NCBI GenBank assembly: GCA_034520665.1
Contig: JAXHNJ010000002.1
Location: 608,660 to 672,659 of the forward strand
Reading direction: 5' to 3'
Origin: Patescibacteria group bacterium
GTDB lineage: Bacteria; Patescibacteriota; Patescibacteriia; JAXHNJ01
Length of the DNA: 64,000 nt
Made by a program: the position numbers and the translations under genes. Below the pieces are notes generated by a model. That model saw nothing but the letters and a program-made list of their open reading frames with translations, was not told the DNA's origin and did no database searches. Of this stretch, positions 34,860 through 64,000 are shown one piece after another. Each line of letters starts with the position of its first letter. Within the stretch, counting starts at the first letter, position 1.

Positions 34860-37800
34860 ATGGGATTTAAACAAAATAATAATTTAAATAAGAAAATAAT
34901 CAACAGCTTTTTTTTACTGCTGTTTTTGTTTTCTTTTTTATTTATAGCTATAAAAGCCAATAAAGCTAAAGCACAATTTGGAGGACTAGTATTTGATCCA
35001 AGTGTTTATCAAGCTATAAGTACAGAGAGTGTTAGAGAAGCAGCGGATGATGTAAGAGAAGCAGCGGATGATACTAAAACAAGCATATGGGATAAAATTA
35101 AGGATAGATTGCAAGTAGCCGGTGATGTGGCTTATAAAAATGCTTTAAGAGTATACGTAGGCCGGTTAGCTCAAGACACAGCTACTTGGCTGGCTTCAGC
35201 CGGTACCGGCCAGAAGCCGCTTTTTATTACAGACCCTAATTACTGGAAAGATTTGACAGATGCGGCCGCTGGGGACGCCCTTTATACCTTAGGGGCTAAT
35301 GTTTTTGGTGTTAATATGTGTGAGCCAAATATCGGTGTTAAAATGAATATTACCTTCGGCTTGGGCCGAATTTTTAATCCCAATACCTGGTGTGAAGACA
35401 GTTGTGAGTGGGCCTATAACAGTAAAATTAGTAGTGTAGGAGAAAAATTTAATGAGGATAAAGTAGAATTTATTGATGACACTAAGGTGCCTAAAACAGG
35501 TATTTTAAACTATTACCAACAGTTTGCTTCAGATGCCAAGAGAGATGATAAAACTTCAACAAGATTTGATGAATTTAAAAAAATGTATGGTGATAATTTT
35601 CCTTGCCCGGTTAAATGTGTAGGAGAAGAAACCGTTGGTCCTCCGTCTCCGGGTATGCTTTGTATGGAGGCTGAGTATGAAGATAATCCGGATAATATGG
35701 AGAAACTCCCAACCACCTTGGAAAATTTAAGAGCTTGTATCTATACTTTACAAAATATATCAATTGAAGAAAGTCAGGAAGCCACTAGTGACCGGACTAA
35801 ATGTATGAGAAATTGTAATAATTATGAGCCGAGAAAAGCCCAGTGTAAGGCTAGTGATATTTGGACTAATGTAGAAACTATGGCTGATGAAACCGGTGGT
35901 AAATTAATTGGTGACACAGTTGATATATTTCTCAAACCAGAAGAAAATGATATTGGCCAATTACTGCTTACTTATGAACATATTAATGAAAAAACGCAGG
36001 CAGAATTATCAAGAGAAAAGACTCTTGCAGAAGGACAGATTAAGCCGGTAACGGCTACTGTTAGTAAAAGTATTTTATCTCCCCTGGAATTTGTTCACGC
36101 CCGCGGTAATCTTGCTTTAGATAAAGGGACTGAACCGGCGGTAGCCTATACTGGTTCCTGGTATGCTGACTCTATTACTATTTTTACTAATACTTTAATC
36201 AATAAATTAATAGAAAGAATTTTTGGCGGGTGCGGCTTAAATCAGGCGGCTTGTGAAAGTAGTCCGAGTGGCGGCTCAAAACTTAGTCAGCTTATGTTTG
36301 GCTCTGGCGGGCCAGTCGGTACAGCCGCGGCCAAACTGCGTTTCTCTTCTATTGCCAAAGTAGAATATAGCCGGGGCAGTCCCGGGCAAGACCCGATAAA
36401 TAGCGGGAATTTAACTTCAGAAGGCATTATTGATTCTGGTTTTGGAACAGCCATAAATGAGAAGATGACCGTTAAAAAGGCTCTTGAAGAAGGATTAATT
36501 GGCGGTATTTTTGGTTTTGATATTGAAGGACGCCAGCCCTCTATTGATTCTGGTATCTCTTACCGAACTATATTATATTTAAGAAAGTACCGGGTAGTGC
36601 CCGTGGGCTGGGAGTTGGCCGCTGAGTGGATAAGAGAAAATCCGCAGAGTATTTCTTTAAAACAAATAATGAACGAATATAATAATTGTGAACCAGGCGG
36701 AGAAAGTACCTGTAGCCATTCTGAAGAGACCTGTGTTAATAATAGCGATTGTTATGACGATTCCATTTATCCTACTTGTAATAACAGTGGAGACTGTACT
36801 GGAGTATGTAGTGGTACCTTTTGTATAAACGAACCATCGGTTTCATGTACCAGTGATACCGATTGTAACCAGGTCTGTGCTCATGAGACTAGCGATGATA
36901 CTTCTCATTGTTATTATTTTTGTAATGATGACAGTGATTGCGGCCCTAGTGAAATGTGTGTTGATAATTTTGGCGGTACTTCCGGTCATTGCGTCAGCGA
37001 AAACGAAGCTTATTGCCAATATCAGTCATCAGCTTCTCCCTTTTGCGGTTTAATTGATCCTAACTGGGTTTTAAAACTGTCGGCTACTTATTGTGAAAAA
37101 AGCGGAGCCGGAAATGAAATTATAAGCCGGGATTATATTTGTGCTGATGATACTAACAGTGACGGAGAAGCAAATTGTTATTCTGGCCGTGAAGGAGATT
37201 ACGCCGATGATATTGGCCAATGGCAGATTATGAGGGATTCTAATACTTGTATTGACGAAATTTCTTGTTTAAAAGAGGATGATCAGGGTAAATGTATTAA
37301 ATATGGTTATTGTTTTGAAGAAAGGCCAATCTGGGGTTTCAACGGAGAGGAATGCCCGCGCCAATATGCTTCCTGCCAAACCTTTGCTGTTCAATCAGGC
37401 GAGGAATATTCCTATTTAACCAATACTGTGGATACAAACGGTTGTGATTCCACTAATGCCGGCTGCCAATGGTATTGCCAGGATTATGATCAAGCAAACA
37501 GCACCTGGACTTGCCCCAGTACCGGCAATAAAATATATTTAGACCGAGATGTGGCCGAATGTGAAGAGTCTGATAAAGGCTGCCAGGAATTTATCCGCAT
37601 GTCTCAAGGAACAAACTTAGAAAATAGTTCAAGTTTTGAATATTATGAGGCTTGGCCAGCTGCGATTGTTCCTAATTCCGGAGAAATTGATGATGGAATA
37701 GAAGATGAAATTTATGGAGTATATTATAAAAACCCCAGTCTAAATTGTGGCGTTGAAGTAGAAGCAGTTAGCGAGGCTCATAGCGGTTCAGTCGCTATAA

Positions 37801-40721
37801 AATTACTTCATCATAATACTGATTGTACGGGTGGTGATACGGGGCATTATCTAAGTAGTGAGGGTATTAATATGGGATCTTCTGTTTTGAATAGGACTTT
37901 TACTGCTTCTTATTATGCTAAAGCCACAGAACCTGTAAGTAGTATTTTTAGAGTAAAAAATGGTGGATGGGATGACACATTAAGCCCCCCGGCAAATGTT
38001 TTTGTACATCTAGCTAATAAAAATGTTGATTATACTACTGATTGGCGACGTTATAGTGTAACCTTTACTGTTGATGAGTTAGCTCTTAAGAGTGATGGTA
38101 GTCCGGCTAATTCTGATATGTTAGTTTTGCTTATTAACACTAGTGGTGATCCGACTATTGATCTTTTTATTGATGATTTACAAATTGAAGAAGGTGGTAT
38201 AAGCTCTTATAAAAATTATGCTGAATCTAACAAAATTTATTTAAATGGTGAAAGATTTTCTTGTCCTAAAGAAGATGTTGGTTGTGAAGAATATTCGCCG
38301 GTTAGCGGCGGACAATCAATACCAGGGGTAGTTTATGCCAATAATCTTTGTTCAGCCGATGAAGTCGGTTGTCAGGCTTTTCGCGAGAAGGCTATTGAAC
38401 GCATTCCCCAGAGACCAGAAACAGATCCTCTGTATTTTATTTCCGGTACCGGTACTCAGTGTAAAGCCGAAGATGTTGGCTGTGAGGAATACACAAATTT
38501 AGAAAAAGCAGCCAGTGGCGGTGAAGTCAGGGAATATTTTAAGAAAATTAAGCAGTGCGTTAAACCGGATTCAAGCGATATAGTCACTTATTATACTTGG
38601 GTCGGAGATAACGAAAGTGGTTATCAGTTAAAATCATTTTCCCTTAAGCAGAGTAATTTAAATAACTACGATAGTGAAACTGGATCAGCCCCTTGTACTA
38701 ATTTAGATATTTCAGGCGGCGGCGTTGACCCGGCCTGCCGAGATACGGCTCCGACTTCAGATTATGAACCGGCTGTTTGTCAAGCCTCAGAAGTCGGCAC
38801 TAATCCAGATTGCGCTGAGTTTTATGATACCAGCGGAAATGTATTTTACCGTCTGCGTTCCCGGATTATTGAAGCTACTGATAAATGTGTTACCTATAGA
38901 AATTCTATTGATAATTCCCAAAGCTTAGATAACGTCTATTTTATTAATCCTGAAGCCAGTATGACTTGTTCAGCTGACAAAGCCGGCTGTCGGGAATATA
39001 AAGGCAATACCGGTGATGTTACCCGGAAAGTTTTTGAAAGTGATTTTGAAGAAACAAATTTAGCTGCTACTAATTGGACTAATGGCGGCATTAGCAACGA
39101 ATCTTTGAATATTGACGGCCACTCTCTGCGGGTTTTAGATAATTCTACGGCCACTAGTGTTATTAATCCGGAGGTTTTAAAGGAAGCTAAATTAGTTGAG
39201 GGTCAGTATTATGAATTAAGTTTCTGGATGAAGCCAAATAATGCCAATTATATTAATTCCATAGTTATACAAAATGACGCTTATGCCTGCAGTAGTGGCG
39301 GTGATTGTTATAGTGATTCTGGTTGTCCAACTGGGGAAACCTGTGATGATGTCGGAGAGTCTGGAGCTATAAGTTTTGGTAGTTTCCCGGTTAGTTTGAC
39401 CCCGGAGTGGAATCTTTATACTTTTGGTCCGCTTAGGTTTAACCGAGAGGCTCTTGGCTTTGAACAATTAGCTATAGCAGCCGACGGTTCATTTTTTCTG
39501 GATAATATATTATTGGAAGAAGTGGCTGATACTGATTATTTAATAAAAAATACATTTGTTTCCTGTTCAGCTGGTAGTGTTGGTTGCCAGGCCTACAAAG
39601 ACTCTAAAGACGATGTGCATTATATTAAATCTTTTGACCACCTTTGCAGTGAAGAATATATTGGCTGCGAAGCTTTGATTAACACTCAGAATTCAGCTAG
39701 CCCCTTTAAGGAAACAATTAAAGATATAGACATACCAGCCGATACAGTAGAAAGTATAGTTTATGATAATAGTAAATTCTGTCCGGGTTCATCAAAAGGC
39801 TGCCAGATGCTTGGTTCGCCGGTTATGGATAGTCTTGAGCGTATAGTTAAGTGGGAAGATAAATATTTAATTAATAATCCGGATAGATATAATTATCGTG
39901 AAGGTGATCAAGATCTTTCTATAGCTTGTTTGGCTGAGGAAGAAGGTTGTCAGGAATACACTTACGCCGAAGGTTCGGGCCTTATGTGGTTTAAGGATCC
40001 TGGTGGCAAAACTTGTGAATATAAAAATTTATTTGAGGATGAAGAATATAAATGGTACAAGACTAACACTGACCAGTTTTGTCCTTCAATTACGCCACCG
40101 CCCGAGGGGAGACCTACTGGTTTAGCCTGTGTTAATACCTGTGATTCTGGGGGTTATGCGGGTCAGGCTTGTGTGCTTGACGAAGACTGTAAAAGCTGGT
40201 GTGACGCCGCTAGTGATAATACTGGAGAAATGTGTCAAGAGGCGGCGGATTGTCCTAATGGCAGCTGTGTGGCCAGTAATTGCCAGGGAGACACTGATGA
40301 AGTTGGTAAAGCTTGCACTGATTCCACTGATTGCTCGGGAGATAATAAATGTGATTATTGGGTTGGTTTATGTCCGAGAAATGAGAGTGGCTGTAATGAA
40401 TACCGTGATCCCACTGATCCGGCTGGTTGCCGCTCCTCTTGCAGTTTGATGGAAATTGGCGGAGAGCCAGTCCCCTTTAATAATAGCTGCCAAGCCACTG
40501 TTTGTGTAGCTGGTGGGGAGGATGGGGAATATTGCGGTAGTGACGCTGATTGTCCCGGCGGTGCTTGTTCTGGCGTCGGTATTTCTGGTTGCCGCTCCTA
40601 TTATTATATTAGAAACACCATTGAAGAAAACAAAGGAGACTGTAATGGCCAGATTGATCTTGAAACCGGTTGCCGGCCTTTTAATGATGTCTCTAATCCA
40701 GAATTAAATCTAAGAATTTAA
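34860..40721 (+). CDS. giant (1953 aa) secreted Cys-rich repeat protein
   Basis: Signal peptide FLLLFLFSFLFIAIKANKAKAQ; about 12 recurrences of the motif [VKAIE]GC[QER][EAM][YFL] (VGCEEY, VGCQAF, AGCREY, VGCQAY, IGCEAL, EGCQEY, SGCNEY...); many CxxC/Cx4C clusters. Confidence 0.8.
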   Translation: MGFKQNNNLNKKIINSFFLLLFLFSFLFIAIKANKAKAQFGGLVFDPSVYQAISTESVREAADDVREAADDTKTSIWDKIKDRLQVAGDVAYKNALRVYVGRLAQDTATWLASAGTGQKPLFITDPNYWKDLTDAAAGDALYTLGANVFGVNMCEPNIGVKMNITFGLGRIFNPNTWCEDSCEWAYNSKISSVGEKFNEDKVEFIDDTKVPKTGILNYYQQFASDAKRDDKTSTRFDEFKKMYGDNFPCPVKCVGEETVGPPSPGMLCMEAEYEDNPDNMEKLPTTLENLRACIYTLQNISIEESQEATSDRTKCMRNCNNYEPRKAQCKASDIWTNVETMADETGGKLIGDTVDIFLKPEENDIGQLLLTYEHINEKTQAELSREKTLAEGQIKPVTATVSKSILSPLEFVHARGNLALDKGTEPAVAYTGSWYADSITIFTNTLINKLIERIFGGCGLNQAACESSPSGGSKLSQLMFGSGGPVGTAAAKLRFSSIAKVEYSRGSPGQDPINSGNLTSEGIIDSGFGTAINEKMTVKKALEEGLIGGIFGFDIEGRQPSIDSGISYRTILYLRKYRVVPVGWELAAEWIRENPQSISLKQIMNEYNNCEPGGESTCSHSEETCVNNSDCYDDSIYPTCNNSGDCTGVCSGTFCINEPSVSCTSDTDCNQVCAHETSDDTSHCYYFCNDDSDCGPSEMCVDNFGGTSGHCVSENEAYCQYQSSASPFCGLIDPNWVLKLSATYCEKSGAGNEIISRDYICADDTNSDGEANCYSGREGDYADDIGQWQIMRDSNTCIDEISCLKEDDQGKCIKYGYCFEERPIWGFNGEECPRQYASCQTFAVQSGEEYSYLTNTVDTNGCDSTNAGCQWYCQDYDQANSTWTCPSTGNKIYLDRDVAECEESDKGCQEFIRMSQGTNLENSSSFEYYEAWPAAIVPNSGEIDDGIEDEIYGVYYKNPSLNCGVEVEAVSEAHSGSVAIKLLHHNTDCTGGDTGHYLSSEGINMGSSVLNRTFTASYYAKATEPVSSIFRVKNGGWDDTLSPPANVFVHLANKNVDYTTDWRRYSVTFTVDELALKSDGSPANSDMLVLLINTSGDPTIDLFIDDLQIEEGGISSYKNYAESNKIYLNGERFSCPKEDVGCEEYSPVSGGQSIPGVVYANNLCSADEVGCQAFREKAIERIPQRPETDPLYFISGTGTQCKAEDVGCEEYTNLEKAASGGEVREYFKKIKQCVKPDSSDIVTYYTWVGDNESGYQLKSFSLKQSNLNNYDSETGSAPCTNLDISGGGVDPACRDTAPTSDYEPAVCQASEVGTNPDCAEFYDTSGNVFYRLRSRIIEATDKCVTYRNSIDNSQSLDNVYFINPEASMTCSADKAGCREYKGNTGDVTRKVFESDFEETNLAATNWTNGGISNESLNIDGHSLRVLDNSTATSVINPEVLKEAKLVEGQYYELSFWMKPNNANYINSIVIQNDAYACSSGGDCYSDSGCPTGETCDDVGESGAISFGSFPVSLTPEWNLYTFGPLRFNREALGFEQLAIAADGSFFLDNILLEEVADTDYLIKNTFVSCSAGSVGCQAYKDSKDDVHYIKSFDHLCSEEYIGCEALINTQNSASPFKETIKDIDIPADTVESIVYDNSKFCPGSSKGCQMLGSPVMDSLERIVKWEDKYLINNPDRYNYREGDQDLSIACLAEEEGCQEYTYAEGSGLMWFKDPGGKTCEYKNLFEDEEYKWYKTNTDQFCPSITPPPEGRPTGLACVNTCDSGGYAGQACVLDEDCKSWCDAASDNTGEMCQEAADCPNGSCVASNCQGDTDEVGKACTDSTDCSGDNKCDYWVGLCPRNESGCNEYRDPTDPAGCRSSCSLMEIGGEPVPFNNSCQATVCVAGGEDGEYCGSDADCPGGACSGVGISGCRSYYYIRNTIEENKGDCNGQIDLETGCRPFNDVSNPELNLRI

Positions 40722-40725: not shown

Positions 40726-43700
40726 ATGAAATTTAGAAATAACAAAAAAATAAATAGAAAAACTTTAGTTCTGAGTATTATTGCGATTTGCCTAGTTTTC
40801 TTTGGTAGTTTTATTTTCTCTTTAAATTTTAATTTTGATAGTATAAAAAATATTATTAACCCCTTTTCCAAGGTCCAAGCGCAAACCTCAGCCCTTTATT
40901 TAACCAATATTCATGTCAGCACTATTAACCATGATAATGCGGTTATACATTGGGAAACAAATGAGCCATCTGATTCTTTGGTAAATATAGGCACTACGTC
41001 TGATTATGAAATGCCTAATGTTAGTTCTTCAGTTATGGAGAGAATTCACCGCTTAACAGTTAGTGGCTTGGAAGCAAAGACCACTTATCATTATCAGGTA
41101 GTTTCCCAGTCAGAAGACGGAGAAGTAAAGACGAGTGTTGACCGGACTTTTACCACTAGCGAAGAGTCTTCAACCACCTCTACCACTGCTCTTACTGTGG
41201 AATCAATGCAGGTGGAAGCAAATTATGACCGGGCCCAAGTTAGTCTAACGGCTTCTTCACCCAGTCAGGTTACTATATTTTATGACACTTCTTCACAGAC
41301 TGATTCCAGTGGCTATACTCATGCTCAAAGCACAGCTTCTTACGCTATTTCCTCAACTATATATTTATCCGGTCTTTTTTCGGATACAGATTATTATTAC
41401 CGAGCTCGTATAGAAGATGCCAGTGGCAGCAGCTTTGTTAGTGGTGAATTTGAGTTTAAGACTAATCCTGAGCCACCACCGGCGACTATGCCAGATAGTA
41501 CTAAGTTTAATGCTGGTTGTGGCGGTGGAATTTTAATTGGTGATTGTTCGGGCACCAGTTATTGTGATCCCGGAGCGGCCGCTTTGATTAAAAGGTGTGA
41601 TAAATGCGGCTACGCTTGCCCCGAGGGAGAAACCTGCCGTACAGACGGCACTTGTGTCAGTGACCCGACTGTTAATGTACTTAATTATTATCAGTGTAAT
41701 TCTCCGCAGTGCTATGATATAAATGGTAATTTCATCAGTCCGGCGGTAGATCCCGGTTGTAACTCAAGCTATCCCCGGTGTAATGCCAACACTGTGCTTA
41801 AAGTAGCCAGAGACCGCGAATGTGCCAAATGGCTCACTTGTGGCACGGCTATTGAACAGACTAACCCGGAAACCGGTCAGTCTGAAGAGCTTTGTATGAA
41901 CTTGGCAGTTTGTACTTCTCTGGGAGAAAGTGGCCAGTGCACTAGTTATGCTAACCTACCCCAGGTTCAGGAAACTTATCGTATGCCCGAAGAAGCTGAT
42001 AAAATTCGCTGGCTGTCTGGCTCAATCAACGCTGGTCTTGACTGGCGCTATGAAAAAGGATCACCGGTTATCTCGGGCTATTATCCCTGGTCCTCTATGT
42101 CAGAAGTGGGCGGTAAATTAAAAATTAAGAACTGGAATTTTGAAGAAACAAAAATTATTCAAGCGGAAATAAATAGTGATAAGCCTGGTCTAGAAGATGT
42201 TAAGACTTATGATATTGCTGAATGGTCCGATAATTTTATAAAATATCCTAATAAAGCGTCAAACAATACTGATTTAGAGAGTGTTTGGGATCCGAGCCAG
42301 CCAAATAAAGAAAACCGTTGTTTGAAAGTTGGGTCTATGGATGGACCGGGTCAGGGTGTGAGTATTTTAGCCCAAGGCAGTACTGCTACGGCTAGTAAAT
42401 ACGTGGCTAATTTGCGTATCAAATCCAGTGATTCTGCCAGTCAAAGAGTGGATATTCGTTTGAGCAGCGGTGGCTCTGACCCGACTATTCATGATTTTGG
42501 CACCTATTTGCTAACCACTGGCTGGCAGCAAATAACCACCCCGGCTATTGACGGCCTTGGCAAGCAGGATACTTATATTCAGGTAGTCTTAAATTCAAAT
42601 TCTGATACCCAGGCCTTTTATATTGACGATCTTAAGTTAGAGCCGGTTTTAGAGGTTAAAGATGACTTTTATTTAAAACGCTCCTGCCGTCTTTATCCAG
42701 AAGAAGACTCTATGTCTTGTGAATATTTTGATGACAACGGTATTTATCACAAGGGCTGGTATGGCTATTGCCTGGACTGGGACCCTAAAAACGAAAATAA
42801 ATGTATTTCCTGGTGGCCGGTGGATATCCTCAAATACGAAGACAATATTTTTGGCCAGAGAGAGTCGGCCGGTTACACTGGCCGCCAGCCGGTTTATATG
42901 TGTATGGAGAGTGAGGGGGGCGATTCGACACTTGAAAGAGTTGTGGATAATTCTACCGATAGTTGGTTGGGTTGGAATGTTAATTATTTAGATGAATGTG
43001 CTAGTGGTCAAGAGTATGGAATAGATTCGGAAGATGATTTGCCTACATACCCACAATTTGATTCTTCTGATTATGATTTTGCTATTTGTAATCAGACAGG
43101 CGGTGTTGAACAGGGATATTCACTTACTGGTAGTGAGATTGCAGTTTTACCAATTGGCGAAGAGTGGGCCCCTGATGATGCTAGCTGTGATCATCTTGCT
43201 GCAATTGATGGTGATGAAACTCCTGCAGGTTATTGCTACGGGGTTATTGAATATATGGAAACTAAACATCCCGAATATCATTACTTATCTGAAAATGTAA
43301 TTTCATATCTTTCATTAGATACTATCGCAAATTGGGATGAGGGTATTTTGTGGTCGTTTATTTCTTCGGGTGGTGAATGGCCAGTAGGCGGACTTACGTT
43401 TGATGGAGATAAGATGTATGGTGACTATTATGATAGTGAAGTTAAGGGTCCTACGAACAAGAGATATCGGAAGAGATTTGTTGATGACGGAAAAATATAT
43501 TGGAGATTGAGGGCACATGATGAAAATGATTTAGTGTTTTTTCTAATTTTTGAATGTTTAGATAACAGTGGTGTTGTGAGAAGCTGTAGTATAGATGATA
43601 GAGGTCAGCTTACTGCGATGGCTATGTGGGGTGACGATAATACTCCCTCCGACGCCGAAGTTTCTTCTTATAGAGTAAATATAGAGTTACGTGAGAGATG

Positions 43701-50870: not shown

Positions 50871-50886
50871 TAAAAAATTTATCTAT

Positions 50887-51672: not shown

Positions 51673-51872
51673 TGGAAATATACCGCAACTAAAGGGAATC
51701 AAGAAACATAGAAATTTTGATCATTGGATCATTTGAATTTGAAATTTGAAATTTGTTTTTAGTACTTGGGTCTAAAATACATCTAAAATCAAGACACTGA
51801 CCCCTCAAAAAAGCCTATTAAACTTTCTTTGTCTAAACAAACATTATATGGTATAATAAACAAGTAAAATAT

Positions 51873-54597: not shown

Positions 54598-55082
54598 GAC
54601 AATACACAGTGCCACAATTTATAGATATTGAAAGTAAAATTATCGGTTCTATTTCAGTGAGGCAATTTATTATTTTATTGGCTGGTGGTATTGTTATTTA
54701 TCTTAATTATGAATTGTTTGGTTCTATAAATTTCTGGTATTTTGGCATAACTTCTTTGTTTATATTTGCCTTTACAGGGACTTTAGCTTTTTTGAAAATA
54801 AATGGACAGTCTTTTCAATATTTTTTACTTAATATCTTTAATATTATTAAAGATCCGAGATTAAGAGTTTGGAATAAGGAATTTAGTAAGAAAGATTTTC
54901 AAGTTAAAAAATCTAAATCACCCGATACAAAAGTAATAGCTAAAAAAGAACCGCTTTCTTTATCGCATTTAAACCGTCTTTCTTTAGTGGTTGATACAGG
55001 CGGGGCTTATAAGGACGAAGACAAAATATTTAAAAAATCAACAGTTAAATATATTAAAAGAAAAAAAGATAATAATGAGTAA
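54594..55082 (+). CDS. VirB3/PrgI-like small two-TM protein
   Basis: 162 aa with two adjacent TM helices (FIILLAGGIVIYLNYELFG; YFGITSLFIFAFTGTLAFL), immediately upstream of VirB4-like genes. Confidence 0.4.
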   Translation: MRQYTVPQFIDIESKIIGSISVRQFIILLAGGIVIYLNYELFGSINFWYFGITSLFIFAFTGTLAFLKINGQSFQYFLLNIFNIIKDPRLRVWNKEFSKKDFQVKKSKSPDTKVIAKKEPLSLSHLNRLSLVVDTGGAYKDEDKIFKKSTVKYIKRKKDNNE

Positions 55083-55764
55083 AAAAAAGAAAGTAAAAAA
55101 AATAAAAAATAAGAAATCTGCTTCTACCCAGAAATATCTAGATATAATGGAAATTAAGGATAATTGTGTTATTCTTAAAGACGGCACTTTAAGAGCAGTT
55201 TTGATTGTTTCTTCTATTAATTTTTCCTTAAAATCAAATGAAGAGCAGGATGCGGTTATACAGAATTATGTACAATTCTTAAATTCTCTTAAATTTAATC
55301 TACAAATAGTAATACAGTCAAGAAAATTAAATATTGAAGGATATTTGAATAGGCTTCTAAAAATAGAAAAAGAACAAACAAATGAACTTTTAAAAATGCA
55401 AACCAAAGAATACAGACAATACATTACTGAATTAGTAGAAATGGCTGATATAATGAGTAAGAAATTCTATGTAGTTATTCCCTATACAGGACAAGGAGAA
55501 AAACCAAAAAAGTTTTGGAATAGATTAACTGAAGCCATTTCTCCCGGAAAAGTTATACATATAAAAAAGAAAAAGTTTAATAAATATAAGACACAGTTAT
55601 TTAAACAAGTGGATTTTGTCAGAGACAATCTCTCCTCAATCGGCTTAAGGGCCGAGCCACTAGATACCCAGAGTTTAATTGAATTGTATTATAATACTTA
55701 CAATCCGGAAACTTATGACCAACAAAAATTAACTGATGTAGAAAAAATAAATTTAGAGAAATAA
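55076..55764 (+). CDS. VirB4/TrbE-like N-terminal domain protein (split VirB4, part 1)
   Basis: DIMEIKDNCVILKDGTLRAVLIVSSINFSLKSNEEQDAVIQNYVQFLNSLKFNLQIVIQSRK matches the CagE/TrbE/VirB4 N-terminal pattern; ends TAA 3 nt before the next ATG. Confidence 0.5.
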
Positions 55765-55767: not shown

Positions 55768-57777
55768 ATGGCTGATATAAATCTATCAAAATTTAAATCA
55801 GAAAAAGAAAAAGAGGTAGCTTCGGAAGAGAGTAAAAAGAAAAATTTGAAACCGGAAGAAGAAAAAGATCTGATTGAAGCCGAAAGAATTTATCAAAAAG
55901 GCGCTGTTTCAGTTAGAGACTTAATAGCTCCGGCGGCTGTTAATATTGAAAAAGATTATATAAATTTAGGTAGTCAATTTGTGCGTACAATATTTGTGGT
56001 TACTTATCCGCGCTATATTTCAGTGGGCTGGTTTGCTCCAGTAATAAACTTAAACTTGACCTTGGATGTTAGTATGTTCTTTTATCCGGTTGAATCAAAA
56101 GTAATTTTAAAACAACTTAAAAATAGAGTCGGTGTTTTAGAAGCTCAGATAATGTCAGATGCGGAAAAAGGAGCCCCCCGTGATCCGGTGAGAGAAACGG
56201 CTTTGAAAGACATTGAAAAATTAAGAGATGGTTTAACTCAAGGGGTAGAAAGATTTTTTCAATTTGCTCTTTATGTCAGTGTTTATGCTGATAGTAAAAA
56301 AGAACTGAATAATATAACAGAAAAAATAGAATCAATTTTTGGCTCGGTTTTGGTTTATACTAAGAGAGTGCTTTTTCAGGCTGAGCAAGGCTTCAATTCC
56401 ACAGTGCCTTTGGGTTTGGATGAACTGCAAATAGCTTTTAATATGAATTCCAGTCCTTGTGCTTCTTCTTTCCCTTTTGTTTCAGCCGATTTAACTTCAG
56501 AAAATGGTATTCTTTACGGCATTAATCGTCATAATAACAGTCTTATTCTTTATGATCGTTTCTCTCTGGAGAATGCTAACTTTAATGTTTTTGCTACCTC
56601 AGGTTCTGGTAAGAGTTATGCTATTAAACTGGAAGTTCTACGCTCACTTATGTTGGGCGCTGATGTTATTATTATTGATCCGGAAATGGAGTATAAATAT
56701 ATTTCAGATGCGGTTGGCGGTACTTATATTAATATTTCCTTAAATTCTGAAAGTAAGATTAACCCCTTTGATTTACCCAAATCAGTATACAGTGGTGAGA
56801 AACCGGCTGATATTATTCGTTCAGCCGTTATTACCTTAAAATCTCTTTTACGTTTAATGCTGGGAGATTTAACTCATGAAGAAGATTCCATTATTGATCG
56901 GGCTTTATTAGAAACTTATTCTACTCATGATATTACAGCTGATTCTGATTTAGAAAAAGTTAAACCTCCTTTAATGAAGGATTTACAAAATGTTCTTGAG
57001 GGTATGGTCGGAGCTGAAGAATTAGTCCAAAGAGTAAAAAAATATACTGAAGGAACATTTTCCGGTCTTTTTAACAGCCCGACAAATGTAGAAGTTGAAA
57101 ATCAATTGGTCATATTTTCGGTCCGTGATTTAGAGGATGAATTAAGACCGATTGGTATCTCTATGATTATTTCTTATGTTTGGAATGTGGTTCGTTCGCA
57201 AATGAAAAAACGTATTTTAGTTATTGATGAAGCTTGGTGGCTTATGCAAAATGAAGACTCCGCCAAATTTATTTACGCTTTAGTAAAACGCTGCCGCAAA
57301 TATTATCTTGGTGTGACTACTATTACCCAGGATGTTAATGACTTTTTACGCTCACCCTATGGGCAGGCTATTGTTAATAATTCGGCTCTTAAACTTTTGA
57401 TGAAACAATCTCCGTCTAGTATTGATATTGTGGCTAAAACTTTTCTTTTAACTCAAGGGGAAAGATACTTGCTTTTAGAGTCGGGCGTGGGAGAAGGTAT
57501 CTTTTTTGCCGGTACCCGGCACGCAGCTATAAAAATCGTCGCTTCCTATGCTGAGGATCAAATTATAACTTCTGACCCCAAGCAACTTTTAGAAATTGAA
57601 GAAGCCAAAAAAGAATTTAAAGATCAGATGGTAGAAGACGACGAAGAACAACAAGAAGAGGGGATAAAAGGAGAAGAGGCAGAAAGCCCGGTTAATAAAA
57701 TTGGCGAAAAACCTGAAGCTAAGGAGGAAAGTATCAGAGGTATAAATATTAGTAAAGACAGCCAAGGTTTAGGTTAA
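55768..57777 (+). CDS. VirB4/TrbE-like conjugal-transfer ATPase, C-terminal ATPase domain (split VirB4, part 2)
   Basis: Walker A FATSGSGKSY, IIIDPEMEY, Walker B RILVIDEAWWLM, C-terminal TTITQDVNDF...ALKLLMKQSP...GEGIFFAG motifs. Confidence 0.85.
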   Translation: MADINLSKFKSEKEKEVASEESKKKNLKPEEEKDLIEAERIYQKGAVSVRDLIAPAAVNIEKDYINLGSQFVRTIFVVTYPRYISVGWFAPVINLNLTLDVSMFFYPVESKVILKQLKNRVGVLEAQIMSDAEKGAPRDPVRETALKDIEKLRDGLTQGVERFFQFALYVSVYADSKKELNNITEKIESIFGSVLVYTKRVLFQAEQGFNSTVPLGLDELQIAFNMNSSPCASSFPFVSADLTSENGILYGINRHNNSLILYDRFSLENANFNVFATSGSGKSYAIKLEVLRSLMLGADVIIIDPEMEYKYISDAVGGTYINISLNSESKINPFDLPKSVYSGEKPADIIRSAVITLKSLLRLMLGDLTHEEDSIIDRALLETYSTHDITADSDLEKVKPPLMKDLQNVLEGMVGAEELVQRVKKYTEGTFSGLFNSPTNVEVENQLVIFSVRDLEDELRPIGISMIISYVWNVVRSQMKKRILVIDEAWWLMQNEDSAKFIYALVKRCRKYYLGVTTITQDVNDFLRSPYGQAIVNNSALKLLMKQSPSSIDIVAKTFLLTQGERYLLLESGVGEGIFFAGTRHAAIKIVASYAEDQIITSDPKQLLEIEEAKKEFKDQMVEDDEEQQEEGIKGEEAESPVNKIGEKPEAKEESIRGINISKDSQGLG

Positions 57778-57792: not shown

Positions 57793-58404
57793 ATGAAAAA
57801 ATTATCTATTATCATTATGGTAGCCGTTATAATTATTTTAGGAGGTCTGGCCTTTGTATTTTTTTATTGGTATGAGGGTAATGGCAATGTGAATGACGAC
57901 AATCTTAATCAAGCAAATACTAATTTTGCTTTAAATTTAAATCAGAATCAAAATCTAAATCTTTCGGTTAATACAAATGCGAATAATAATACTAATTCGG
58001 CTATTGATAAAAGTAAAGAAAAAAATGAAATAATAGGAATGGCCCATACTTTTGCTGAACGTTTCGGCAGTTATTCAAACAAAAATGATTTTGAAAATTT
58101 AGAAAACCTTAAATCATGGATGACTTCTAGCTACCAAAAAGATATAGATAGCTATATTGAAGAACAAGAGAAAATTAGATCTGAAGACGATGATTATAAA
58201 GCTATGGTGAGTAAAGTAATTTCTAATAAAATAACTAATTTTTCCGACGAAAGCGCTAGAGTAGAGTTATTAACTGAAAGAACTGAAGAAGATCTAACAG
58301 ATACTCTGGATAATTATTATCAGAAATTAGTTTTAGAGTTAAAAAAAATTGATAATACATGGAAAATTAATGCTGCTTCCTGGGGTGAAAAGAGTGATCT
58401 ATAA
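57793..58404 (+). CDS. bitopic membrane protein (possible VirB8-like)
   Basis: N-terminal TM, N/Q-rich linker, ~130-aa C-terminal domain; position after VirB4; no motif confirmed. Confidence 0.3.
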   Translation: MKKLSIIIMVAVIIILGGLAFVFFYWYEGNGNVNDDNLNQANTNFALNLNQNQNLNLSVNTNANNNTNSAIDKSKEKNEIIGMAHTFAERFGSYSNKNDFENLENLKSWMTSSYQKDIDSYIEEQEKIRSEDDDYKAMVSKVISNKITNFSDESARVELLTERTEEDLTDTLDNYYQKLVLELKKIDNTWKINAASWGEKSDL

Positions 58405-58414: not shown

Positions 58415-58708
58415 ATGAAAGAATTAGATGAAAAAAAAAAGAGTGAAAATAAAGATAGGGAAATTGAAAGAGAGTTAAAAGAAAAACGTTTTAATGAAAG
58501 AAACATTAATCAAGAAAATTTACGTGAAATTCCTGAAACCCAAGCGGATGATGGGGAAACTCCAGAAGAATATAGAAATTCATCCTCTGAAAAAGATGGA
58601 TTAGATTTTAATCAGGAAGATACAAAAAAGGAGGAAGAAGAAGATGAGGAAAGACAAAGAAGAAGAAAATTAGAAAAGAGTAAGAAAAATAGCCAAAGAG
58701 GAGGTTAG
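58415..58708 (+). CDS. hypothetical highly charged small protein
   Basis: 97 aa, E/K/R-rich. Confidence 0.3.
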   Translation: MKELDEKKKSENKDREIERELKEKRFNERNINQENLREIPETQADDGETPEEYRNSSSEKDGLDFNQEDTKKEEEEDEERQRRRKLEKSKKNSQRGG

Positions 58709-59029
58709 AGAAAAAGTCAAAAAGTAGTTAAAAAAGCAGCTAAAAGTTTTTAAAAATACTCATTCAAAAGAATAATGATACCAAATTCTGGGGCTATCGT
58801 CAGTTTTTTTCTGGCTACCTGGTATATTTGGCTTGATTTTGGCAGTAATTATTTTTCTGATTATTTTAGGACATTACATTTATGAAAATCCTAGCGAGAT
58901 TACAAATTTTTTGGATAAAGAAACTTTTGAGGGCTTAAAGGCAATTTTTAAGTCCTGATTATTAAATTATAATATGATAAATAAAAATATAAAAATATTA
59001 ACTAAATTAACTTTAGCTTTTAACAGTAT

Positions 59030-60300
59030 TATTTTTTTACTCTTTCCTTTTATAATACTTTAGCTCAAGAAGGAGGCGTCAGCGAACGAAATCCGGAGAA
59101 AAAGGAAATACCAGTAAGATTTGAAAATACCAAAAATCGACTAAAACCCTGTGATGAAAACGGGAAAATTTGCTGGTAGTTACTGTGCTCAATAACTTTG
59201 GCGAATTGCTGTGTCAGTTTTTCTGACGGGTTTGCTGGAGCAGTGTGTTTGCCGCTGTCATGATTGTCTTTGCTGGTTTGAAATCGATTACTGCAGCGGC
59301 AATGTCCACCAAAATAGAAAAAGCCAAAGCCACTTTAAACGGCGCTTTAATAGGTCTGGTTTTAACCTTAGGGGCTTTTGTTTTACTTGATCTAGCCCGG
59401 CCTTGGTCCGCTTTAAACTTTTGCCCTTGATCTAATATATCAAAAAATGTTTTAGATACTTTTTATTGCAGGGTCTACAAATCGAGATAGATAGATCACA
59501 CCACATTTTGCTTGCTGGTACAAGTTATGGTATTCCTAAAAGTGTCCAGGATGAAGTGGGTTATAATAAATATTATTGTTGTGGTAGTGTCTGTAGTGAC
59601 TGTTTGATGAGGAGGGTAACCCACGAATTTGCGCTAATGATGTAACTATGGTGGGTGAAGATTGTCCTTCTTTATTGTTCTGACCCACAAAAATCATGTG
59701 AGGAAGCTAATAAAGATGAGCGTCAGAAAATTGAACTCGACATATTGGAAAAAAATAAAATAACTGATTATAAATGTAGTAAGGATAGACCGGTATTTCC
59801 TCCGACTCCTGTGCTTATGTTGAAAATAGTAGAAAATCCTTGTGAAGGAAATTGGAAAAGAATAAATTGTAGTTTTAAAGGTAGAATATTCTGGAGAAGT
59901 AGAAACAGCTTGTTGGGATAGAGTGGAAGGATTATTGTACAACGATGAAAGAGTATAGATATCGATAATGGTGTTGCGTTTTATTGAAAGAAAATACATT
60001 TTTTGCCAAGAAGAGTTATGTATGGAGATGTTTGAAGAAAAGATATTATACAGATAGATTGCTATAATAGTTGTATAATACAATGGAGAAAGTTATACAG
60101 TATGTCAGGGACGACTATGGAAAATTGTAGTTCAATATTACGCACTAATTTATTGTGGAAAAAATTTAAAGATAAAAAGTAAATATTATTAATAGGAACC
60201 TAAGTTAAAAAGAAATTCACCACTTTATGTGGAGAAAATCCTTGTGGATCAAGTACATCTGCCAGTGCGCCAATGGATATTTGGCTGTATGGATGTTAAC
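59030..60300 (+). pseudogene. degraded copy (a) of the pilin-like/Cys-rich gene family (d-type paralog)
   Basis: Multiple frameshifts; fragments LAQEGG..., FGELL..., MFAAVMIVFAGLKSITAAAMSTKIEKAKATLNGALIGLVLTLGAFVLL (ORF 59245..59430), CEEANKDE...ILEKNKITDYKCSKDRP...IVENPCEGNWKRINCSFKG (ORF 59655..59921) and LCGENPCGSSTSASA align to the minus-strand copy at 62840-64000. Confidence 0.6.
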
Positions 60301-60339
60301 TTATATGTTAAAAAAATACAATTTTTCCTAATTTAAATA

Positions 60340-61470
60340 CAAGATGAAAAATAGCTAAATAATTTTTACCCATCAATTTTCCGTTTTGTTATTTATTCAG
60401 ATTTTTAGTCAGGAAGAAGGAGCTGATACAGAAGTGGTTAAAAGGATATTAGAGTCTACAAATTCCTGGTTAACCAAAAAAATGTATCCCATACTTCGAC
60501 CCGCTGATTATTGTGTCAATAACTTTGGCCATCACACTATAGAATTTCACCAGCTCGCAGCGGCGCACCCCCTTTGCCGGCACTGCCAGTGCACGCCACT
60601 CGAAAAGTGAGAAAAAGCCAAACTTGATTTTAAACGGCGCTTTAATGGGTTCGCTTTAGGGCTTTCGTTTTACTTACACTTACCCCAGCCTCTGGTCCAA
60701 CTTTTGCCCTTGTCTAATATATCAAAAAATGTTTTAGATAATTTCATTGCAAAAATAATTCCCGCATAACTCAATATAGTTACCCATATTTTGCTTGTGG
60801 GCAAGATACTATATTCCTAAAAGTGTCAATATAAAAAAGCAGTTATGGTAATTCATATTGTCGTAGTGAATGCGATTCCGACTGTAAGAAAATAACTTTG
60901 GGGAGAACGGCAAAAAATTGAAAAGGATTGTCCTTTTAAAATTGTTGAATCTTATATTTATGCGATGAAGCTGATGATGAAAAAATGCGAAGGATGCTGT
61001 TATCGGCTAAAAAATCAGGAAATAAAATCAAGCTGCCGTAGTAATTACAAGGGTTTTGGAAATAATGGACTGCCGAATTTTCAAAAACACGTGGTACGAG
61101 GATAACCTAATATTTGAAGTTACCTTTTACAAGATTGATGGAAAAGTTGTGAAAGAAGTTACTGATATAAGAATAGATTGTGAGTGGTGGTACCAAATGC
61201 TTGACTCTGATAATAATAAATCACAAGATAATTTATAATTCTGACAAAATTTTTGTACTATTTTTGTATAGCTCAATACTATTTGTCGTATGAAAAAAAA
61301 AAAAAACAGTAAATTGATTGTTGATCTGGAATGGTTATAGTAAAAAATGAATTTGAGACGCGCGACACCTATATAATCTGAATTTACCACACGAAATACC
61401 AGGTGGCGGCGAGGATTGTTGATTGATATGAATGTCTTTGCTTCAGTCATCATATCAACTATCTTCATTA
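60340..61470 (+). pseudogene. degraded copy (b) of the pilin-like/Cys-rich gene family (c-type paralog)
   Basis: Broken signal peptide; SQEEGADTEVVKRI...ADYCVNNFGHH... (ORF 60386..60610); degenerate IEKAKATLNGAL segment; ...CDEADDEK...; EVTDIRIDCE (ORF 61056..61238); in-frame stops and frameshifts throughout. Confidence 0.6.
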
Positions 61471-61655
61471 AAATTCTTTATATCGTCAAATTATTAGCTG
61501 TATTTAGATATAAAAAAATATTTCTCGAATAATTTGACGATATAATCAAGTAAAATTTTAATGAAGATAAGGTCCGAGCACAACAAATATGATCAGCTGG
61601 ACAAAAACATTCATTATTATCAATACAAGCAAGATCCTCGCCGCCACCTTGGTAT
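61393..61655. repeat. 24-bp inverted repeat gaaataccaggtggcggcgaggat (61393-61416) / atcctcgccgccaccttggtatttc (61631-61655) at the convergent 3' ends of paralogs b and c
   Basis: Near-perfect inverted match (one extra a in the right copy) visible directly; part of a longer stretch of inverted homology between the 3' ends of the plus- and minus-strand copies. Confidence 0.8.
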
Positions 61656-62743
61656 TTCATATCATTAAATTCCGGGCTATTATAGGTGTCACAGTCTACC
61701 TCAATTTCATTTTTACTATCACATTTCCCAGGATCCCGACAATCAATTTCTGTTTTTAAGGCTTTCATACAACAAATAGTGTCAGCTTCTACGTTAGCCC
61801 GGGAATCACTGCTACAAAAAATTTTGCTAGGAGCTATGAGATATCTTGGTTCATTATTATCAGAGTCCCAACATTGGGTACCGCCACGTTCACAATCTAT
61901 TCTTATATCAGTAACTTCTTCACAGACTTTTTCAGTCAACTCATCTTGTAAAAGATTAACTTCAAATATTCCATTACTACTAGTACCACGTATTTTTGCA
62001 AAACGGCAGTCCATATTCCCAAAACCCTTATTAATTCTACGGCAGCTTGATTTTATTTCTGGATTTTTAGCAATAACAGCATCCACTTCTTGGCATTTTT
62101 CATCATCAGCTTCATCGCATAAATCCTTGGGGTCAAAACAATTTAAAGGACAATCCTTTTTAGAAGTAACGTCATTGGCGCAAATTTTTGGTTCTCCGGA
62201 TTTAGTTTCTACAGTCGGATCACATTCACTACCACAACAATATGATTCACCATAAGCTGCTTTATCCTGGGCACTTTTAGGAATATCATATCTTGTACCA
62301 CAAGCAAAATATGGGTAACTATCTATTGATTCTTTATCCGGGAAATCTTTGCAATAAAAAGTATCTAAAACATTTTTTGATATATTAGACAAGGGCAAAA
62401 GTTTAAAGCGGACCAAGGCTGGGTTAATAGTATTAAGTAAAACAAAAGCCCCTAAGGTTAAAACCAGACCCATTAAAGCGCCGTTTAAAGTGGCTTTGGC
62501 TTTTTCTATTTTGGTGGCATTGCCGCTGGCAGTAATCCACTGGAAACCAGCAAAGACAATCATGACAGCGGCAAAGATACCGGCCGCTCGAGCAAACCAT
62601 TGGTAAAACTGTATAATATAATCGCCAAAGTTATTGACACAATAATCACAGGTAGAGGTATTACAATCGGGATCACATTTTTTGGTTAAGCCGGGAATTT
62701 GTAAATTTACTTTAATCTGTTTTTCACCCAACTTCTGTATCAC
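61478..62743 (-). CDS. VirB2/TrbC-pilin-like protein fused to a ~300-aa Cys-rich C-terminal domain (paralog c)
   Basis: ...DYCVNNFGDYIIQFYQW then two hydrophobic helices separated by TASGNATKIEKAKATLNG (TrbC/VirB2 topology), then about 40 Cys in CxC/CC clusters; start is GTG; the signal peptide lies upstream in another frame. Confidence 0.65.
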   Translation of the reverse strand: MIQKLGEKQIKVNLQIPGLTKKCDPDCNTSTCDYCVNNFGDYIIQFYQWFARAAGIFAAVMIVFAGFQWITASGNATKIEKAKATLNGALMGLVLTLGAFVLLNTINPALVRFKLLPLSNISKNVLDTFYCKDFPDKESIDSYPYFACGTRYDIPKSAQDKAAYGESYCCGSECDPTVETKSGEPKICANDVTSKKDCPLNCFDPKDLCDEADDEKCQEVDAVIAKNPEIKSSCRRINKGFGNMDCRFAKIRGTSSNGIFEVNLLQDELTEKVCEEVTDIRIDCERGGTQCWDSDNNEPRYLIAPSKIFCSSDSRANVEADTICCMKALKTEIDCRDPGKCDSKNEIEVDCDTYNSPEFNDMKYQGGGEDLACIDNNECFCPADHICCARTLSSLKFYLIISSNYSRNIFLYLNTANNLTI

Positions 62744-62835
62744 TTCCTTCTTCCTGAGCTAAAACTTGCCCTGAATAAAATAACAAAACGGAAAAAATTG
62801 ATAGGATTAAGATTATTTTAGCTATTTTTTTCATC
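62726..62835 (-). CDS. signal-peptide exon of paralog c (MKKIAKIILILSIFSVLLFYSGQVLAQEEGSDTEVG*), separated from the main ORF by a -1/+1 frameshift
   Basis: ATG at 62833-62835 (minus), typical signal peptide, stop after 36 codons overlapping the GTG start of 61478..62743; homolog 60386.. reads through (SQEEGADTEVVKRI). Confidence 0.55.
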
Positions 62836-62839
62836 TTAT

Positions 62840-64000
62840 TATTTAATTAGGAAAAATATTATTTTCATTTTTAACATATAAGTTAACATCCATACAGCAA
62901 TGTCCATTAGGCACAATACTGCAATCAGTAGCACTGGCAGATGCACTTGATCCACAAGGATTTTCTCCACATAAAGCCGATAATGAGTAAAATTCTTTTT
63001 AATTTTGGGTTCATATTAATAATATTTACTTATATTTTAATTTTTCCACAATAAATTAGTGCGCATCCAACAATTTGAACTACAATTTTCAGTAGTGTTG
63101 TCGTAATAGGTACCTGACATACTATTATAACTTTCTCCATTGTCTAAAATATCACTATCACAATCTATCTGTATAATATCTTTTTCTTCCCAAACATCTC
63201 CCATACTCGAGTAAGGTTTTTCTTCTTGGCAAAATATATTTTCTTTAGGAAATAGAGCGCAACACCATTTATCAATATCTCCTACTCTTTCATCATTTGT
63301 ACAATAATCCCTTGGCTCATCTTTATCCCAACAAGCTGTTTCTACTTCTCCAGAATATTCTCCTTTAAAACTACAATTTATTCTTTTCCAATTTCCTTCA
63401 CAAGGATTTTCTACTATTTCAACATAAGCACAGGAGTCAAAGGAAAGACCGGGTCTATCCTTACTACATTTATAATCAGTTATTTTATTTTTTTCCAATA
63501 TGTCGTCAATTTTATAACACTCATCTTTATTAGCTTCCTCACATAATTTTTGTGGGTCAAAACAATTTAAAGGACAATCTTCACCCACCATAGTTACATC
63601 ATTAGCACAAATTTGTGGGTTACCCTCCTCATCAACATCACTACAGACACTACCACAACAATAAGATTCACCATAACCCACTTCATCCTGGACACTTTTA
63701 GGAATATCATAACTTGTACCACAAGCAAAATGTGGTATTATCTATCGATCTCGATCCGGAAACCCTGCAATAAAAGTATCTAAAACATTTTTTTATATAT
63801 TAGACAAGGCAAAAGTTTAAAGCGGACCAAGGCCGGGTTAATAGTATTAAGTAAAACAAAAGCCCCTAAGGTTAAAACCAGACCGATTAAAGCGCCGTTT
63901 AAAGTGGCTTTGGCTTTTTCTATTTTGGTGGCATTGCCGCTGGCAGTAATCCACTGGAAACCAGCAAAGACAATCATGACAGCGGCAAAGATACCGGCCG
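62840..64000 (-). pseudogene. paralog d of the pilin-like/Cys-rich family, frameshifted, running off the window
   Basis: ORFs 63037..63681 (Cys-rich domain) and 63780..63977 (MIVFAGFQWITASGNATKIEKAKATLNGALIGLVLTLGAFVLLNTINPALVRFKLLP) are separated by indels relative to paralog c; C-terminal ALCGENPCGSSASASATDCS... in a third frame at 62880-63000. Confidence 0.6.

Follow-up and report, generated by a model that had tools for sequence, protein, structure and literature searches.

What does a cluster of genes resembling a type IV secretion system (T4SS) do in a candidate phyla radiation (CPR) bacterium, and is such a machine new? The question is raised by a stretch of 64,000 nucleotides (hereafter the window) from a Patescibacteria group bacterium (assembly GCA_034520665.1, contig JAXHNJ010000002.1, positions 608,660 to 672,659), in which co-directional open reading frames (ORFs) across 33.9-58.4 kb, all on the + strand, encode a VirB4 ATPase, further putative T4SS components and two giant cysteine-rich proteins (here called G1 and G2), followed by pilins fused to cysteine-rich domains. 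Comparison with related genomes and with published systems indicates that the locus is an already described Patescibacteria-clade T4SS and not a new system. With a probability of roughly 80%, we read it as a chromosomal machine of a CPR bacterium that forms a surface filament or conduit for host contact and is non-conjugative. What appears to be undescribed lies at its periphery, namely the giant proteins encoded upstream of VirB6 and the large ectodomains carried by the pilins.

A monoderm-type core machine

The central components can be recognised at different levels of sequence similarity. The product of 54594-55082, which a first-pass annotation made from the sequence alone had called a VirB3-like protein with two transmembrane (TM) segments, does contain two such segments, matches PrgI (Pfam PF12666) at 29.7 bits against a gathering threshold of 27 and is named 'PrgI family protein' in the NCBI record. 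VirB4 scores 365.9 bits (cutoff 325) with NF045971, the NCBIfam model for VirB4-like conjugal transfer ATPases of the CD1110 family, and 95 bits with the Pfam family P-loop_TraG. Its sequence contains a Walker A (FATSGSGKSY) and a Walker B motif (ILVIDEAW), and in the PDB it comes closest to the Thermoanaerobacter VirB4 domain 4AG5 (E=1.8e-49), with TrwK next (1.4e-7); its similarity to the CedB family is weak (E=2e-11) and far under the family cutoff. The VirB4 had been described as split, and this holds in the sense that two adjacent ORFs cover successive parts of one profile, that of the Mbov_0397-family VirB4 (NF045975), with the 229-aa product at positions 89-265 (E=7.7e-12) and the 669-aa product at positions 258-893. 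The upstream part is TrsD-like: it also matches TrsD/TraD (NF041427, E=2.4e-4), and its identical counterpart in L001 carries PF26593 as a precomputed TraC-like annotation (L001-L087 are our labels for related contigs or loci, and P-numbers those for related proteins).

The 1148-aa polytopic protein has about 6-7 TM segments within residues 1-350, an E/K-rich region (residues 400-900) and a conserved C-terminal domain. It has no direct match in Pfam, NCBIfam or the PDB, and a VirB6-like profile compared with PDB sequences gave nothing relevant. The VirB6/TrbL-like character proposed for it is nevertheless supported through its homologues. Among the 52 relatives found, those with names all come from Patescibacteria, except for one record labelled Methylomirabilis; PF04610 (TrbL/VirB6) is matched by 8 of 33 relatives, in three cases above the threshold (31.6, 27.5 and 27.1 versus 25.9 bits), and homologues that pass as TrbL reach E=7.6e-23 in phmmer. 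Moreover, residues 81-371 align with residues 82-358 of P0031 (32% identity, E=7e-34), which spans the TrbL region of the latter. Because TrbL-positive homologues align across their TrbL region, the identity of the 1148-aa protein follows transitively, and with its E/K-rich region and C-terminal domain it is an 'extended VirB6' in the sense of PMC12857230.

The 203-aa bitopic protein, earlier listed as possibly VirB8-like, has its TM segment at the N-terminus, followed by a linker of low complexity and, at residues 74-201, an NTF2-like domain. Its predicted structure, modelled from a 5-sequence alignment, adopts the VirB8 fold, which supports a VirB8-like assignment; a VirB8-like profile searched against PDB sequences had no relevant match. 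On these comparisons, VirB4 with a separate TrsD-like homologue, PrgI, an extended VirB6 and a VirB8-fold protein make up a predicted monoderm (MPF-FATA-like) cytoplasmic-membrane machine.

Cysteine content sets the proteins predicted to be extracellular apart from the seven cytoplasmic and membrane components. It is at most 0.4% in the latter, as opposed to 4-7% in G1 (99 Cys, 5.1%), G2 (57 Cys, 3.9%) and the pilin tails (30 Cys, or 7.1%, in the pilin ORF).

Relation to described systems

In Southlakia, epibiotic growth has been shown to require a T4SS that includes a pilin array and lacks a recognisable relaxase or coupling protein (Wang et al. 2023, PMC10633639). A survey of 2,474 virB4 genes (Quiñonero-Coronel et al. 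2025, PMC12102498) placed the Patescibacteria genes in a clade related to MPF-FATA, with TrsD as the commonest T4SS component, PrgI and VirB6 also reported, VirB8 rare and found nearly exclusively in ABY1, arrays of VirB2-like genes, ksgA nearby (in ABY1 also comF, recG and radA) and, in just 15 cases, a relaxase near virB4. The locus in the window shares with these systems (including SEML1_0006-0019 of Southlakia epibionticum, PMC10633639) VirB4 with adjacent TrsD, PrgI, VirB6, a VirB8-like protein and pilins, as well as a chromosomal site near ksgA and the lack of a relaxase or type IV coupling protein (T4CP) nearby. Its placement in the clade draws on profile scores and best-match identity for VirB4, TrsD, PrgI, VirB6 and the pilin family PF18895, together with the core-gene context. 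As the system is already described (PMC10633639, PMC12102498), its novelty was at first overstated.

The differences lie elsewhere. Here and in relatives, giant Cys-rich G1 and G2 and a TSP3-like protein are added upstream of VirB6, the pilins have ectodomains of ~250 aa with cores that are ~97% identical (versus at most 54% reported within arrays), and this genome has an insertion of IS200-like/NnrD and PPDK_N genes. PMC12102498 mentions neither proteins that are giant or rich in Cys, nor TSP3 proteins, nor fused pilins, and a text search of the literature returned nothing relevant; within the searchable literature, G1 and G2 as operon neighbours of VirB6 that are conserved among relatives, the protein family defined by the G1 N-terminal module and the pilin-ectodomain fusions look undescribed.

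With the monoderm MPF-FATA systems (TrsC/D/E of pGO1, Tra of pIP501, Prg of pCF10 and CD1110 of CTn2) the locus shares a CD1110-type VirB4, PrgI, a separate TrsD (as in pGO1), a bitopic protein with the VirB8 fold (like PrgL, TraM and TcpC) and the lack of an outer-membrane core. It differs from them in that the cluster contains no relaxase, no coupling protein (VirD4/TcpA) and apparently no VirB1-type hydrolase, in the presence of VirB2-like pilins, which are absent from monoderm systems, and in its chromosomal core site as opposed to a mobile element. The T4SSs of Rickettsiales and Bartonella likewise have a VirB6 with a large hydrophilic C-terminal extension and duplicated, diverging VirB2 genes, which are thought to vary surface interactions, but they are diderm MPF-T systems with VirB7/9/10/11 and D4, and their small pilins lack fused ectodomains.

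Pilin genes and an assembly artefact

The pilin region requires particular care. The first-pass annotation had described a multi-copy family of VirB2/TrbC-like pilins, each fused to a Cys-rich domain, and indeed four copies can be found in the window, two (A and B) on the + strand and two (C and D) on the - strand, with A resembling D, B resembling C and many frameshifts among them. Several observations indicate that only two of the copies are real. In the NCBI record of the 698-kb contig, the genes from G1 through the VirB8-like one each appear under a pair of accessions whose orders mirror one another (MDZ7799044-055 and 064-075), and the contig ends with a mirrored G1 (locus tag 05775, prefix U5L76_). 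An inverted duplication of ~27 kb, which takes in the entire T4SS locus, closes this contig; for KsgA, LeuRS and ComM there is a single accession. Another contig (455 kb), from the same metagenome-assembled genome (MAG), begins with a palindrome as well, which reads 424-aa pilin, 408-aa pilin, a 104-aa fragment, VirB8-like and then VirB8-like, 182-aa protein, 408-aa pilin, 424-aa pilin. In the window, the palindrome is centred at ~61,470 and its mirror arm occupies 61,478-64,000 and beyond. Given this centre and the mirrored accession order, copies C and D are the mirror images of B and A, and the simplest reading is that of two assembly fold-backs at adjoining contig ends, with the true order being VirB4, VirB8-like, the 182-aa gene, the 408-aa pilin, the 424-aa pilin and onward.

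The consensus itself is also affected. L001, an independent short-read contig, is identical to the window over 50.8-58.67 kb, and past 58,670 the two differ by ~15 single-base homopolymer indels in 500 nt (the overlap extends to 59,223). L001 preserves an unbroken 182-aa ORF and an unbroken beginning of pilin A, and the other contig has intact 408-aa and 424-aa pilins. The window between 58,670 and 61,470 is a poorly polished consensus in which homopolymer errors create false frameshifts in the 182-aa gene and in both pilin genes. Similarly, a single surplus G within a G-run, which removes the signal peptide, is all that is wrong at the start of copy C, and apart from window errors the product of copy C is P0250. 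Pseudogenes or silent cassettes serving phase or antigenic variation were considered for these copies and dropped, because the frameshifts sit in homopolymers, because an independent assembly shows no damage to the 182-aa gene or to the beginning of pilin A, and in view of the fold-back accession order and the intact 408-aa and 424-aa genes. More generally, the ends of long-read MAG contigs can fold back and thus lead to inflated gene families and false pseudogenes.

Therefore, the earlier description stands as regards the fusion and fails as regards the number of copies, since there are two real genes. Their pilin identity is given by T4SS_pilin (PF18895), which the 421-aa ORF of copy C matches at 26.6 bits, equal to the threshold (22.4 and 18.7 bits for pilin fragments), and which is present in 19 of 19 related pilin-domain ORFs (best 3.3e-10), two of them also matching TrbC/VirB2; the NCBI record names the products 'pilin'. 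P0254 comprises a signal peptide, the T4SS_pilin hairpin and a Cys-rich tail. It is ~97% identical to P0250 over residues 66-183 and divergent from it in the leader and after about residue 240, with the tails forming divergent Cys-rich ectodomains of ~250 aa. A constant core beside variable ectodomains suggests gene conversion of the core. In relatives, pilin-domain ORFs of 185-650 aa are common and most have Cys-rich tails, and a few (in L026, L002 and others) are instead fused to peptidoglycan hydrolase domains of the VanY, M15 (Peptidase_M15), Amidase_2, 3D or SLT type. A gene for a DsbA-like thioredoxin (cluster c24) lies beside large Cys-rich pilin genes in L007, L027, L036, L046 and L058, which fits oxidative folding of the pilin tails; the window lacks such a gene. 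The acidic 182-aa protein has its TM segment at residues 133-151 and is found intact in L001 and as MDZ7799063/MDZ7797998.

Giant proteins upstream of VirB6

The two giant Cys-rich proteins of 1953 and 1444 aa noticed at the outset are confirmed. G1 has an N-terminal hydrophobic segment, a helical 'head' module (residues ~40-600) and two regions resembling CBM_4_9 jelly rolls, and its sequence contains 12 copies of the pattern C-x6-GC-x2-[YF], compared with 0.19 in shuffled sequences. Homologues of the full-length type number 24 (1369-3298 aa, all from Patescibacteria), and at least 824 cluster representatives match the N-terminal module of ~570 aa, 572 of them at E<=1e-10. With few exceptions these proteins are 1.3-5.1 thousand residues long and begin with the module; the members sampled carry CBM_4_9 and dockerin domains. 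G2 begins with FN3/Pur_ac_phosph_N-type domains (PF16656 at 36.4 bits, fn3 weaker). Neither giant has a relevant match among PDB sequences, and an AlphaFold model of G1 residues 1-620 (25 sequences) reached a pLDDT of 62.5 and a pTM of 0.34, with nothing below E=0.4 in Foldseek.

G1 shares with VirB5/TrbJ pilus-tip adhesins its secretion, a start with long helices and a gene position just before VirB6, and its mature N-terminus (AQFGGLVFDPSVYQAI) may bear some likeness to TrbJ/VirB5. One member of the family, with the mature N-terminus AQLGGVVSDPANLAQNIL, matches DUF4141 at 22.4 bits, short of the threshold of 30, and TrbJ likewise below threshold (E=0.034). For G1 itself, Pfam and NCBIfam scans of N-terminal fragments were empty, the poor model matched no VirB5 structure, and the protein is ~8 times larger than VirB5; the candidate was set aside, and a VirB5-like role for G1 is speculative. 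A relationship with the small secreted proteins encoded at the same position in L002, L003 and L077 was likewise rejected (BLASTP negative, hhalign probabilities of 5-40%).

The protein encoded upstream of G1 has a single TM segment (residues 57-75) and weak matches to TSP3_bac and MtsD repeats, and its true start is probably the ATG at 33972. The suggestion that this protein with calcium-binding repeats may be part of the system gains from its position, which is conserved in relatives: counterparts with PF18884 directly follow KsgA in L002, L003 and L084, and L085 and L087 have an unannotated ORF of 245-264 aa in the same place.

Are these proteins then connected with the secretion machine, or do G1, G2 and TSP3 form independent adhesins or an envelope layer that shares the neighbourhood of KsgA and is neither part nor substrate of the T4SS? 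The latter, which we regard as rather unlikely, is favoured by L086, where KsgA and a small ORF are followed by a distant member of the G1 family, with VirB6, PrgI and VirB4 absent within 7 kb downstream, by the G1 head module, in which no T4SS family or fold could be detected, and by the many VirB6-containing loci that have other genes upstream, such as those for an M23 peptidase (immediately before VirB6 in some relatives) or the Der GTPase. On the other hand, gaps of 1-12 nt and a single promoter-like site tie TSP3, G1, G2 and VirB6 together, and the position of G1 is the same in L084, L085 and L087, which keep the order G1-(G2)-VirB6, with a partial view of it in ~15 further loci. In L084 and L087, one or two G2-like genes separate G1 from VirB6, and in ~14 other loci G2 tblastn matches or giant ORFs of cluster c11 are found immediately 5' of VirB6-like genes; in total, giant ORFs of the G1/G2 type occur directly upstream of VirB6 in ~15-20 related loci, most of them cut by the 10-kb flank. 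In CPR genomes of greater distance, TSP3 and a secreted protein still come immediately before VirB6.

Conservation of the locus in relatives

A VirB4-alignment scan of species-representative genomes found 576 relatives, the best 80 of which are 53-76% identical and, where their titles are informative, all come from Patescibacteria MAGs. The nearest are of the Falkow-, Magasanik- and Uhrbacteria type, which we take to belong to class ABY1 of GTDB. ORFs were called and clustered within +/-10 kb of VirB4 in 86 sources, which gave clusters of 79 (VirB4), 70 (TrsD), 67 (PrgI), 58 (the 592-aa family), 54 (VirB6-like), 53 (VirB8-like) and 48 members (ComF). The housekeeping setting of the cluster, with LeuRS, MFS and KsgA, is found again in 80+ genomes of Patescibacteria. 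The order M23/LysM-LeuRS-...-MFS-KsgA-TSP3-G1-(G2)-VirB6-592aa-PrgI-TrsD-VirB4-VirB8-like recurs across L002-L087. Its first part, with M23/LysM on the - strand and MFS before KsgA, is the same in L084, L085 and L087 as far as VirB6, and L085 runs uninterrupted from G1 to VirB4. In L002 and L003, which represent more distant CPR bacteria, KsgA is followed by TSP3_bac, a secreted protein of 285-338 aa, VirB6, an unknown protein, PrgI, TrsD and VirB4; in L002, pilins come farther downstream. RecG, RadA, the DsbA-like thioredoxin and an unknown protein of ~400 aa adjoin large pilin ORFs in several loci.

The 592-aa ORF at 52819-54597, which the first-pass annotation had omitted from its list of genes, is thus a conserved member of the cluster. 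No Pfam family matches its product, of which the C-terminal ~110 aa are conserved. The N-terminal domain of the 478-aa protein is paralogous to that of the 592-aa protein (BLASTP, 28% identity, E=9e-8); this protein has neither TM segments nor Pfam matches, and a counterpart is present in L004. As a separate observation, a motif in the middle of the 592-aa family (...VGGLGL...) is weakly similar to the N-terminal domain of GpsB/DivIVA (E=0.02, PDB 4UG3).

The absence of a relaxase, VirD4 and VirB11 from the window, as initially noted, was borne out by a Pfam scan of window ORFs of at least 100 aa and of the ORFs of the locus, in which no relaxase, coupling protein or VirB11 was found. Neither a relaxase nor a T4CP was present among the recurring gene clusters sampled in 80 related loci. 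There is also no VirB1-type cell-wall hydrolase within 33.9-64 kb; an M23/LysM peptidase is encoded at 23958-24962 (-), in conserved synteny.

Proposed function and alternatives

A possible mode of action can be outlined from these components. VirB4 would power the insertion and extraction of pilins through a platform of VirB3, VirB6 and VirB8, and the extracted pilins may polymerise into a surface filament or conduit. The Cys-rich tails, presumably folded oxidatively outside the cell, could together with G1, G2 and TSP3 bind glycans or the envelope on the host surface. The machine would then mediate contact-dependent exchange with the host cell, and exchange is preferred to conjugation because no relaxase or coupling protein is found and because the homologous system of Saccharibacteria is essential for epibiotic growth. 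Such a non-conjugative use in contact with a host, which the first-pass annotation had proposed, agrees with the published view (PMC10633639, PMC12102498).

Several points weigh against this interpretation. Housekeeping genes break up the T4SS cluster in this genome, the pilin region of the window is partly artefactual, VirB6 is without a direct profile match, the VirB8-like model derives from a handful of sequences, and the G1-like gene of L086 stands beside KsgA with zero T4SS genes in the downstream 7 kb. G1 and G2 are putative partners of the machine, associated with it by gene order, and competence or recombination genes adjoining the cluster in relatives keep a DNA-related role possible.

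This last point leads to the alternative of a machine for DNA uptake or exchange (of the competence type, like ComB or the archaeal Ced system) in place of host attachment and protein or metabolite exchange. In relatives, ComF usually comes immediately after the VirB8-like gene, and RecG and RadA stand beside the pilins (neighbours also reported for ABY1, PMC12102498); in the window, ComM is encoded 16 kb upstream, and VirB4 has its weak match to CedB. However, competence in Southlakia depends on ComEC and type IV pili, with the T4SS being essential independently of ComEC (PMC10633639, PMC12857230), comF, recG and radA are not beside the cluster in the window, and surface binding is the better fit for giant proteins of the CBM/FN3 kind and for pilin tails rich in Cys, so that DNA uptake appears improbable. 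An ordinary conjugative or integrative element, with relaxase and coupling protein just outside the window, would agree with a VirB4 above the cutoff of the conjugal-transfer family CD1110, with the true sequence 3' of the pilins lying outside a window that turns back on itself and with one ORF of the phage-integrase family elsewhere in the window, but it is highly improbable given the core-gene synteny conserved around the cluster across dozens of genomes, the lack of a relaxase or T4CP in the window and among the recurring clusters sampled in related loci, and the mere 15 cases of a relaxase close to virB4 in the published survey (PMC12102498).

Within the preferred reading, that of a non-conjugative surface machine for host contact, a more specific proposal can be made, which we consider unlikely as it stands: T4SS-pilin proteins with large C-terminal cargo domains (Cys-rich binders here, peptidoglycan hydrolases in relatives) and the G1 giants, a few of which may begin with a TrbJ/VirB5-like motif, as filament tip or adhesin might constitute a display-and-delivery platform for modules that bind or cut the host envelope. 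If true, this would be a mode undescribed for any T4SS. The T4SS is among the few machines shown to be essential for epibiotic Patescibacteria life, and the locus offers testable accessory parts in a large environmental lineage: (i) a family of at least 824 mostly giant Cys-rich proteins with the G1 module, some members of which are encoded in the VirB6 operon, (ii) a VirB8-fold subunit encoded directly after VirB4 in most related loci and (iii) pilins with variable ectodomains or hydrolases. All three are candidates for host recognition and envelope breaching.

Features of the locus and its surroundings

All ORFs named in the first-pass annotation are present on the + strand (see the table). 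The locus had been called compact, which is correct for the small gaps between its first genes (12, 4, 1 and 11 nt from TSP3 through G1, G2 and the polytopic protein to the 478-aa gene) and incorrect for its contiguity, as 50039-52817 holds ORFs of 102, 442 and 314 aa. The interrupting genes (Y1 transposase/NAD(P)HX dehydratase and PPDK_N) are found within the T4SS cluster in this genome and L001 only, and a gap of 1 nt couples the PPDK_N gene to the T4SS-associated 592-aa gene. The TSP3 gene (33906-33934, TTGACG-17-TATAAT) and the PPDK_N gene (51829-51857) are each preceded by a promoter-like site with an extended -10, which would fit two transcription units; promoter-like matches show no enrichment over shuffled sequence.

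Table. Genes of the T4SS locus and of the folded-back pilin region, in window coordinates
Feature	Position	Strand	Product (aa)	Remarks
TSP3-like ORF	33906..34847	+	313	Bitopic membrane protein
G1	34860..40721	+	1953	Giant, Cys-rich, secreted or anchored
G2	40726..45060	+	1444	Giant, Cys-rich
Extended VirB6/TrbL-like protein	45062..48508	+	1148	Polytopic
478-aa protein	48520..49956	+	478	Soluble
102-aa ORF	50039..50347	+	102	Unrelated gene inside the cluster
IS200-like Y1 transposase/NAD(P)HX dehydratase (NnrD) protein	50344..51672	+	442	
PPDK_N protein	51873..52817	+	314	Stand-alone domain
592-aa protein	52819..54597	+	592	Soluble; conserved family between VirB6 and PrgI
PrgI/VirB3-like protein	54594..55082	+	162	Two TM segments
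TrsD/TraC-like protein	55075..55764	+	229	229/257-aa ORF; homologous to the N-terminal part of monoderm VirB4
VirB4 ATPase	55768..57777	+	669	
VirB8-like protein	57793..58404	+	203	Bitopic
182-aa protein	58415..58963	+	182	Acidic, C-terminal TM segment; broken by frameshifts in the window into ORFs of 97 and 41 aa
Pilin-Cys fusion, gene A	58974..60182	+	408	True product P0254; many indels in the window
Pilin-Cys fusion, gene B	60344..61470	+	424	True product P0250; noisy window consensus
Copy C	61478..62834	-	421	Mirror of gene B; ORF from GTG at 62743
Copy D	63037..64000	-		Mirror of gene A; runs off the window; one frameshift, two stop codons

The surroundings in the window are of the housekeeping kind (PNPase, ComM, LeuRS, MFS transporters and KsgA/RsmA). 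At ~4-6.9 kb (within window positions 1-6,900), gene orientation and GC skew change sign, with minus-strand genes and tRNAs to the left and plus-strand genes to the right; a replication origin near the locus was considered and not established, as matches to the DnaA box are scattered and form no cluster. A giant surface-type protein of 1333 aa with CarboxypepD_reg and FG-GAP repeats is encoded at 11832-15833 (+), 20 kb upstream of the T4SS cluster. Finally, LeuRS (25413-28415, +) contains an inserted NUDIX domain at residues 426-542, which is also found in the orthologue of L085, and the LeuRS orthologue of L087 has an alpha/beta-hydrolase insert in its place.

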